A stretch of 33,634 bases of DNA from an uncultured Candidatus Saccharibacteria bacterium (GCA_964577245.1 CAZNYI010000004.1:1-33634); one strand, 5' to 3'; shown: positions 152 through 490, numbered from the stretch's first letter. Notes: a model not told the origin generated them from the letters alone. Translations and numbers: made by a program.

Positions 152-179
152 TTGACGAACGATATGTGCGTGCTATCAT
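152..179 (+). promoter_or_regulatory. sigma70-type promoter of structured RNA copy 1
   Basis: TTGACG (152-157), 16-nt spacer, TGc-TATCAT (171-179). The predicted start G186 is the first base conserved with copy 2. The same layout occurs at 3648-3675. Confidence 0.6.
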
Positions 180-185
180 ATTTTT

Positions 186-407
186 GAAAGCAAGGATCCG
201 CTGGATGGCGGACCACATACTCTTGTTTGGTATGCAAACGGCCACTTCGGTGGCCGTTTGCATTTAAGATAGTTTTAATCATGTTTGTGGTAGATTAGTT
301 TCGCCCGTGGTCTTGGGCCCGTCGTTCATATAAGTAGGATCTTGCTTTTACCAAACAAGAGAAGCGGGTGCAAATCCCGCCGGGTCCACGGGTACGGCCG
401 TGTTGAG
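186..407 (+). ncRNA. unclassified structured RNA, paralog 1 (3' end uncertain)
   Basis: About 80% identical by hand alignment to 3682-3904, while the flanks are unrelated. No ORF is shared by the copies. Stems: 233-245/250-262 (13 bp, UUCG loop); 220-232/349-361 (13 bp, 3 compensatory changes versus copy 2); 210-214/383-387 (C:G to A:U); 304-308/388-392. A T-loop-like hairpin lies at 364-380. Confidence 0.7.
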
Positions 408-490
408 TAATTGCTTTTTTGAGTCGCCAAGGTATAGGATGATGGCAGCAGTACGGGGTTCGCCCCAATCACACATAAGGAGAGTCTCAA

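Follow-up and report, generated by a model that had tools for sequence, protein, structure and literature searches.

In a 33,634-nt stretch of DNA from an uncultured Candidatus Saccharibacteria bacterium (GCA_964577245.1, CAZNYI010000004.1:1-33634; hereafter the window) we found two direct copies, at 122-403 and 3617-3900, of one module consisting of a promoter and a structured RNA. We interpret them as a pair of paralogous genes, each encoding a stable, stand-alone non-coding RNA of ~218 nt that is predicted to combine a 129-nt structured 5′ domain with a 3′ pseudo-tRNA and to be bistable, and we give this reading as a whole a probability of roughly one half. The remainder of the window is ordinary Patescibacteria (Paceibacterota/Minisyncoccia) chromosome, with genes for UvrA, UvrC, Sua5, sigma factors and ABC transporters. 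An initial annotation of the window had proposed a structured RNA of about 220 nt with its own promoter, no shared reading frame and base changes that preserve pairing; our analysis supports a non-coding RNA of this kind and finds the covariation to be real.

Alternative folds and the tRNA-like domain

The RNA portions of the two modules, w1 (186-403, the whole predicted transcript unit of copy 1) and w2 (3682-3900), lie on the plus strand, as do all parts of the RNAs described below, and are 80.6% identical over the RNA, in agreement with the second copy reported initially. In contigs fetched via neighbouring proteins and in one metagenome scan we found four further distinct homologues from other Paceibacteria/Minisyncoccia, which answers the concern, raised with the initial annotation, that a lack of homologues would count against the RNA. 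They are L015 (8667-8905, in a genome whose ABC transporter is 95% identical to that of the window), one identical sequence shared by L022, L023 and L025 (a Minisyncoccia metagenome-assembled genome), L026 (1039-1267, the most divergent of the six) and L156 (2071-2289). The resulting six sequences are 67-82% identical. Loci L024, L162 and L163 are the window's own strain in other samples, and L161 is too short to judge. The covariance model that had been suggested was built (model R1) and gives 248.8 bits for w1 and 225.9 bits for w2; a search of 163 fetched loci with R1 and nhmmer found no further copy.

When helices able to pair in all sequences were sought blindly, the top two ranks went to helices sharing the strand 356-360: A:C (222-232:349-359), which is the long helix of the initial annotation, and B:C (340-344:356-360), the stem of an anticodon-like hairpin. 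At its full extent A:C joins leader strand A (220-232) to strand C (349-361) by 13 pairs, 7 of them changed on both sides, with 98.7% of cells paired across the six sequences; the three compensatory changes first noticed between the two copies are as described. B:C has 5 pairs, three changed on both sides and the other two varying on one side, and 100% of its cells are paired. A complete cloverleaf model pairs 97% of cells, with 12 pairs changed on both sides, and a leader-capture model pairs 96%, with 16 such pairs. None of 500 shuffles reached the observed covariation, either for these two models or for the A:C helix, and pairing drops to about 40-50% when the partners are slid by 1-3 columns. 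The coupling is visible as a three-way covariation of positions 223-225, 342-344 and 356-358, which read UUG/UUG/CAA in w1, CUC/CUC/GAG in L015 and UCG/UCG/CGA in L026. The covariation thus argues that the switch strand 337-361 has two conserved and mutually exclusive pairings, both selected, and that the initial annotation had seen only one of two alternative folds. In one of them the strand provides the 3′ side of the D stem and the anticodon-like hairpin (340-344:356-360); in the other it pairs with 186-199 (helix P1) and with 220-232 (A:C), and P1 and A:C together would sequester the whole of 337-361, that is, the 3′ side of the D stem and the anticodon arm. The acceptor/T-arm minihelix, hairpin P3 and the helix 303-308:388-393 are compatible with both states.

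The first of these folds belongs to a tRNA-like domain. In copy 1 it spans 315-388, with the acceptor stem at 315-321/381-387, the D arm at 324-340, the anticodon-like arm at 340-360 and the T arm at 364-380. Its dimensions are exactly those of a class I tRNA (stems of 7 bp in the acceptor, 4 bp in the D arm and 5 bp in both the anticodon and T arms, the last two closing 7-nt loops, with the right spacers), and the cloverleaf helices hold in all six sequences, with one C.A mismatch in the anticodon stem. Near-universal tRNA bases are present (U at -1, U8, A21, U33, G53-C61, C56 and A73), and U8, U33, G53-C61, C56 and A73 are invariant in all six. The same holds for the acceptor pairs G1-C72, G2-C71 and G3.U70 (G317.U385 in copy 1, where A73 is A388), whereas position 4:69 (318:384) runs through C-G, G.U and G-C. 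Each of the six therefore carries G3.U70 together with A73, the mark of an alanyl-tRNA synthetase (AlaRS) substrate, G3:U70 being the main determinant for this enzyme (PMC5389517). The "anticodon" of copy 1 is UAC (349-351) and its T loop is UGCAAAU; the domain of copy 2 (3812-3885) has UGC as "anticodon" and a U.U mismatch in the T stem. The hairpin GCGGG-UGCAAAU-CCCGC at 364-380, initially described as T-loop-like, does form and is the T arm of this full cloverleaf.

A cmscan search against Rfam, a check proposed with the initial annotation together with the remark that a significant match would speak against it, gave such a match for the 3′ third of the RNA: at the gathering thresholds the sole match in the window was to tRNA (RF00005), at 315-388 and aligned to model positions 1-71, with 32.2 bits against a cut-off of 29. 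The statement that no known signature is present was incomplete: the RNA as a whole fits no Rfam family, as had been said, while its 3′ third is a tRNA-derived cloverleaf. The 5′ 130 nt had no Rfam match, and none of the other Rfam 15 families (6S, SRP, RNase P, T-box, cobalamin and others) reached its gathering cut-off, the best non-tRNA match being RAGATH-21 (26.3 bits, cut-off 70.3). Resemblances to cobalamin riboswitches, T-box, 6S, SRP and CsrB-like RNAs had no Rfam support at E<=10 and were rejected. Among the homologues, L025 exceeds the RF00005 cut-off (33.4 bits), w2 stays below it (19.9 bits), and no match appears at E<=5 in L015 or L026; for comparison, a genuine tRNA of L026 scores 61.5 bits. 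The tRNA-like part of model R1 also retrieves a genuine tRNA-Thr in L026 (E = 8e-8). ARAGORN calls the L156 domain tRNA-Ala(UGC) and rejects the other five. Annotation pipelines at present either miss this RNA or, as in L156, mis-call it tRNA-Ala.

Several helices build the remainder of the molecule. The 5′ strand of P1 (186-199) pairs with 337-349 by 13 bp with one bulge; in all six RNAs the first 15 nt find their best partner here (-13 to -17 kcal/mol), and compensating changes occur in L026 and L156. A shorter helix, 186-194:341-349, had first been rejected for two mismatches in L015, and the extended 186-199:337-349 was retained after the compensation in L156 and L026 was seen. Hairpin P2 (UCCGC/GCGGA, 197-212) has an invariant stem, with 100% of cells paired, and a loop that differs in sequence and length in every homologue. 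Next to strand A lies P3 (233-262), confirmed as a perfect 13-bp hairpin with a UUCG loop, in which six pairs have changed on both sides, followed by a nearly invariant A/U-rich segment (UUUAAGAUAGUUUUAAU, 263-279) that may form a weak hairpin, without covariation; no complementary site was found elsewhere in the window. The strand 303-308 pairs with 388-393 and extends the acceptor stem in the manner of a leader-trailer helix (97% of cells paired); its variation is only between G.U and G-C, including the change initially described. Of the helices first listed, 210-214/383-387 fared less well: it covaries in copy 2 and is broken in L156 by a C.C, where the acceptor pair 318:384 has switched to G-C, and its rival 315-321/381-387 pairs in all six, so that it is probably spurious. 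Another candidate, 205-209:397-401, came from RNAalifold on three sequences and was not retained with five or six.

Conservation stops at a 3′-terminal palindrome (UACGGCCGUG, 393-402). Every member ends in a perfect palindrome of 8-10 nt, UACGGCCGUG, CAUGGCCAUG, CAUCCGGAUG or GCGGCCGC (at 393-402, at 3890-3899 and in L015, L025, L026 and L156), and its self-complementarity is kept in all six through a flip of the centre between GGCC and CCGG and through changes in the flanks. Folded into a hairpin, the palindrome would keep no more than 3 bp, which makes dimerisation of the RNA or a site acting at the DNA level seem likelier. In copy 2 the corresponding parts are strand A at 3716-3728, P3 at 3729-3758, the switch strand at 3834-3858 and this palindrome.

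The promoter-plus-RNA module

The promoter of copy 1 (122-185) consists of an A/T-rich upstream stretch (AGATTAAAAAATTATTAAAA), a -35 box TTGACG (152-157) and an extended -10 element TGcTATCAT (171-179), found as claimed in the initial annotation, with a 16-nt spacer, the TG present, 10 of 12 consensus matches and a predicted start at G186. Its twin in copy 2 (3617-3681) likewise has an A/T-rich stretch and a 16-nt spacer, with TTGACA at 3648-3653 and TATCAT at 3670-3675 (11 of 12 matches), which places the start at G3682. Both are strong promoters by sequence, the top two sigma-70-like sites within the first 4.3 kb of the window, and the promoter position is kept in all six homologues. The claim that the repeated block begins exactly at G186 is incorrect, since the promoter belongs to the conserved unit: similarity begins ~60 nt earlier, at ~122 and ~3617, and takes in the A/T-rich stretch, the -35 and the -10. 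The flanks outside the two modules are indeed unrelated to each other, as had been stated, and it is only the region upstream of G186 that does not fit that description.

The module does not appear to encode a protein. No start codon or frame is conserved among the six sequences, indels of 1, 2, 11 and 20 nt disrupt every frame, and stops occur in two of the three frames at 263-279, which bears out the earlier statement that no reading frame is shared. There is no conserved open reading frame (ORF), the presence of which would have spoken against the initial annotation. The five-codon ORF at 281-298 is not the only one in copy 1, as had been thought: a 20-codon ATG ORF lies at 205-267, and both are unique to this copy. 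A tmRNA-like tag frame through P3 was considered and rejected, as the open frame follows from conservation of the hairpin and substitutions there are pair-wise, not codon-wise. The helices retain G.U pairs (G317.U385 in six of six, for example) that would be C.A on the opposite strand; together with the many compensatory changes, these identify the product as a plus-strand RNA. The folding z-score of copy 1 is -5.0.

The family is real but rare as far as these searches reach, and so far confined to a few Patescibacteria. A scan of species-representative genomes with the pattern AAGATAGTTT-N75-105-GGTGCAAATCC returned nine matches, all of them chance matches inside coding sequence, from a collection evidently without the window's own genome. 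Two scans of viral contigs, followed by nhmmer, found no family member, and blastn against phage and plasmid records found no match. The literature searched held no described RNA of this kind from the candidate phyla radiation (CPR) and nothing on RAGATH-21; the RNA family as a whole is undescribed. Identity of the RNA does not track genome distance. The w1 and L025 RNAs are 82% identical, and the only protein matches found between the loci of their two clades are at 46% (window to L149) and 64% (L015 to L147) identity; conversely, the L025 and L156 RNAs are markedly more divergent (230 vs 157 bits with the same nhmmer profile) despite hydrogenases that are 92% identical. Such a pattern would be expected if a subset of positions is strongly constrained, and lateral movement may have contributed.

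Neighbouring genes and alternative explanations

Conserved, mutually exclusive helices are a hallmark of riboswitches and attenuators, and the RNA might accordingly be a cis-acting 5′ leader whose two folds form the expression platform of a downstream operon, for instance of envelope or transport genes. The next gene is co-directional at four of five independent loci, no intrinsic terminator follows the RNA, and several of the genes downstream encode proteins of the envelope or membrane (M23 peptidase, YdjM, DUF5654, an ABC exporter, EamA). We nevertheless consider a leader unlikely. The downstream genes are unrelated at the five loci: a 339-aa ORF, then the M23 peptidase and YdjM after copy 1; DUF5654, then the ABC exporter, after copy 2; a 185-aa secreted or membrane-anchored protein, then EamA, in L015; a cytoplasmic NiFe hydrogenase in L025 and L156; and a convergent 151-aa ORF (L026:1187-1642, minus strand) in L026. 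None of the alternative helices covers a Shine-Dalgarno sequence, a start codon or a terminator; neither copy is followed by a plus-strand terminator-like site, and the conserved block does not reach the start codons, so that the RNA resembles a riboswitch or attenuator neither in gene association nor in control of a terminator or ribosome-binding site. The downstream genes also mostly keep promoters of their own. Outside the second RNA, a separate promoter-like site (TTCACA-17-TATACT, 3906-3934, plus strand) ends 7 nt before the ATG of DUF5654 (3942), and the genes following w2, L015, L025 and L156 have retained a -10 box at 6-7 nt from the ATG, extended with TG in the last three. This short spacing would imply leaderless mRNAs, and relatives without the RNA have an identical promoter layout.

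Comparison with those relatives also indicates that promoter and RNA travel together as one insertion/deletion unit. In L025 and L156 the whole module lies between POR and the hydrogenase gene, whereas relatives with 84-87% identical hydrogenases lack it and have only 37-60 nt between these genes. Two relatives with a 75-78% identical ABC transporter (P0006 and P0017, the gene and up to 10 kb on each side) have no RNA either. The module thus appears to be a self-contained unit of ~300 bp that is gained or lost, and no terminal repeats or target duplications were seen flanking it. Because the downstream genes differ from locus to locus and mostly keep their own promoters, and because close relatives are without the ~300-bp module, a stand-alone gene rather than a riboswitch is the most likely interpretation of the sequences.

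Other features of these neighbourhoods may be recorded here. In these genomes an ATG is often preceded, at only 6-7 nt, by a -10 box, usually of the extended form TGnTAnnnT; such sites occur at window 3906-3942, L015:~8895-8920, L025:~2725-2745 and L156:~2335-2358 and upstream of the hydrogenase in L147, L149 and L155, and the POR gene has the same -10 layout on the opposite strand. The interval from uvrB to the ABC exporter (window 1-6056, compared with L015:6400-11815, L017 and L020) is a variable slot. It holds RNA1, the 339-aa ORF, the M23 peptidase, YdjM, RNA2 and DUF5654 in the window; one RNA, the 185-aa ORF and EamA in the 95%-related L015; and a single small gene and no RNA in distant relatives. 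The two RNA copies of the window bracket a window-specific segment of three genes. In L015:6421-8135 uvrB is split into several short ORFs (contig_64901, of long-read style), which are probably frameshift errors and not a pseudogene. The 339-aa ORF (491-1510) has no Pfam or PHROG match, and a search of 5.8 billion proteins gave no more than two homologues (27-30% identity), both without the RNA upstream. The last ~27 codons of the 151-aa ORF of L026 overlap the 3′ part of the RNA; its CxxC...H...CxxC spacing is reminiscent of an HNH nuclease, without a Pfam match.

Somewhat less probable than a leader is a genuine decoding tRNA (for Ala, Val or Thr, or a mistranslating alanine-accepting one) whose long leader is removed by RNase P. 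Its attraction lies in the exact cloverleaf dimensions and the tRNA bases described above, in a score over the Rfam tRNA cut-off in two homologues and one ARAGORN call, and in the existence of natural G3:U70 tRNAs with non-alanine anticodons, the allo-tRNAs (PMC5389517). The same programs speak against it, ARAGORN by rejecting five of six and the tRNA covariance model by scores of 20-33 bits or no detection, compared with the 61.5 bits of the real L026 tRNA. All six have G55, G18 is missing, position 37 is C, and there are T-stem mismatches in w2 and L015. The "anticodon" varies among close homologues (UAC, UGC, UGU) and position 349-351 covaries only with leader positions 230-232, which accounts for its drift and points to selection for pairing; the 129-nt leader is, moreover, as conserved as the tRNA part. 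An anticodon that varies and covaries with the leader argues that this is not a working decoding tRNA, and none of the homologues looks like a functional decoder.

About equally improbable is a decaying relic without RNA function, either the remnant of a tRNA-Ala gene that integration and recombination had duplicated or moved, or a small mobile promoter cassette. It would suit the patchy, insertion/deletion-polymorphic distribution of the module among close relatives, the position of the two window copies around a three-gene segment absent from the 95%-related L015, and the presence in L149, next to an inserted Mrr gene, of another tRNA-like element with G3.U70. Purifying selection on an RNA is indicated instead by compensatory changes in five helices or more, by the retained G.U pairs, by the conserved promoter and start, and by 82% RNA identity between genomes in which shared proteins match at only 46-64%. 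Nor do terminal repeats or duplicated target sites flank the module.

A reduced or rearranged tmRNA-like rescue RNA, suggested by the tmRNA-like tRNA domain with G3.U70, or a type I toxin mRNA with a hok-like folding pathway, suggested by coupled covariations of a type that Gultyaev, Franch and Gerdes reportedly described in 1997 for hok-family mRNAs, is very improbable, given that frames and start codons differ among the six sequences with no tag-like ORF and with indels that are not multiples of three, that only 59 nt separate the acceptor strands and leave no room for an mRNA-like domain, that tmRNA models (RF00023, RF04321) score 10-24 bits (23.9, 9.9 and 9.7) against cut-offs of 47, and that ARAGORN finds no tmRNA.

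The preferred reading, a stand-alone bistable RNA, has to be weighed against several observations that do not sit easily with it. The six sequences come from only about four lineages, which makes the covariation statistics weak. P1 carries two mismatches in L015 and crosses A:C, which would make a pseudoknot; the two could be combined in a three-way-junction pseudoknot of two equal 13-bp arms or could be successive states. In five of six RNAs ViennaRNA places the cloverleaf 6-30 kcal/mol above the capture fold, in a nearest-neighbour calculation that ignores tRNA tertiary contacts. The sequence encoded after A73 is CGG and not CCA, and the invariance of G3.U70 may only mirror an almost invariant acceptor stem. 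Finally, there is no clear terminator, read-through into a co-directional gene is possible at four of the five independent loci, and the gene that follows copy 1 lacks a clear promoter and is preceded by an ordinary Shine-Dalgarno leader.

Two elements outside the family were also noted. In L149 (1998-2150, minus strand) we observed a different tRNA-like element, with the acceptor GGGGGUU/AACCUCC (including G3.U70), A73, a canonical T loop (GGGGUUCGACUCCCC), a GCGGCCGC hairpin in place of the D arm, and in the anticodon-like arm a 15-nt direct repeat (TCCTGAATTGACACC) that occurs again 116 nt upstream. It adjoins an Mrr restriction-endonuclease gene absent from the related locus L147; model R1 gives it 18.6 bits, the best Rfam model, tRNA-Sec, 23 bits (below cut-off), and ARAGORN is silent. 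The window further encodes, at 24819-30716, a 1965-aa predicted surface protein with DUF2341, Calx-beta, PKD, GDSL lipase, Big_7, fn3, purple-acid-phosphatase N-terminal and PG_binding domains.

Proposed role and comparison with known systems

As a stand-alone RNA, the molecule would use its pseudo-tRNA to recruit tRNA enzymes. The domain appears to retain the features read by enzymes of the acceptor/T arm (the 7-bp acceptor on a 5-bp T stem, U-1, U8, G53-C61, C56, G3.U70 and A73), while its anticodon would be free to vary and its T loop is abnormal (G55). Cleavage by RNase P would fall at 314/315, CCA would be added after A388 once the 3′ end had been trimmed, and AlaRS might then charge the product; such steps would provide defined ends, stability and a handle for protein recognition. 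Capture of 337-361 by the 5′ end (186-199) and by 220-232 would produce a masked form showing only an alanine-type minihelix, and the RNA would toggle between, or mature through, cloverleaf and masked states. Leader capture of the anticodon half may keep the RNA out of translation or gate its maturation. From processing and charging of this kind we infer a cellular role as a tRNA mimic, a regulatory or decoy RNA that would be neither a decoder nor a cis leader.

A more far-reaching possibility, to which we give little weight, is a new class of alanine-chargeable non-decoding RNAs: a bistable mimic processed by RNase P and the CCA-adding enzyme, possibly as a two-piece complex held by the 26 bp of P1 and A:C, showing an alanyl-minihelix while the leader masks the anticodon half. 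It might serve as an alanine donor for the cell envelope or as a sensor or decoy for AlaRS or tRNA-targeting enzymes, encoded by a mobile 300-bp gene among Patescibacteria.

Patescibacteria have tiny genomes, and to our knowledge very few regulatory RNAs are known in them, so a conserved RNA behind a strong promoter, gained, lost and duplicated in units of 300 bp, would be a rare handle on their RNA biology. We know of no earlier description that brings together a pseudo-tRNA with the universal alanine identity pair, an anticodon that co-evolves with a masking strand, and coupled covariations for two folds. If charged and processed as predicted, the RNA would add to the short list of non-translational tRNA mimics (tmRNA, viral tRNA-like structures, mascRNA, tRNA-Other), and it would offer a compact natural model of an RNA switching a tRNA fold on and off. 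Should it prove no more than a stable structured RNA, it would still form a new family worth adding to RNA databases.

Among known systems, tmRNA (RF00023) and tRNA-Ala share with the present RNA an acceptor stem starting GGG with G3.U70 and A73 and with the T arm stacked on it. In the masked state long helices would take the place of the anticodon arm, as P2 does in tmRNA, and cmscan aligns L156 to both ends of the tmRNA model. The score is nevertheless 23.9 bits against a cut-off of 47, the RNA has no mRNA-like domain or tag ORF, and its body lies 5′ of the acceptor strand and not, as in tmRNA, between the D analogue and the T arm; it encodes no CCA and its T loop has G55. The tRNA-like elements of mascRNA/MALAT1, MEN-beta and plant viruses are handles for RNase P, the CCA-adding enzyme or a synthetase. 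They resemble ours in their position at the 3′ end of a longer RNA and differ in being eukaryotic or viral, with mascRNA at 13 bits against 42.5 and Tymo_tRNA-like at 15-19 against 40. With hok-family mRNAs and riboswitch platforms the RNA shares coupled three-way covariations that mark two exclusive selected folds, but it involves no ORF, ribosome-binding site or terminator.

With the allo-tRNAs (PMC5389517) the RNA shares a patchy distribution and the combination of the alanine identity pair with variable non-alanine anticodons. Allo-tRNAs have an 8/4 or 9/3 acceptor/T arrangement and a long variable arm and do decode, whereas the present RNA is 7/5 with a 5-nt variable loop and a conserved 129-nt leader that covaries with the anticodon. 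Our best-supported reading, a stable RNA built from a structured leader and a pseudo-tRNA, would be analogous in kind to tRNA-Other of B. cereus, a pseudo-tRNA inside a larger regulatory RNA (PMC3399842). The two would have in common a variable, island-like locus and a tRNA-shaped element that takes no part in translation and is embedded in a longer transcript extending it at the 5′ end, and the architecture and promoter position of the present RNA, whose transcript is predicted, agree with those of a tRNA-Other-type gene. The two have no sequence relation, and the Patescibacteria RNA is set apart by its own compact promoter, its alanine-type acceptor stem and a leader that pairs extensively, and with covariation, with the D/anticodon half.

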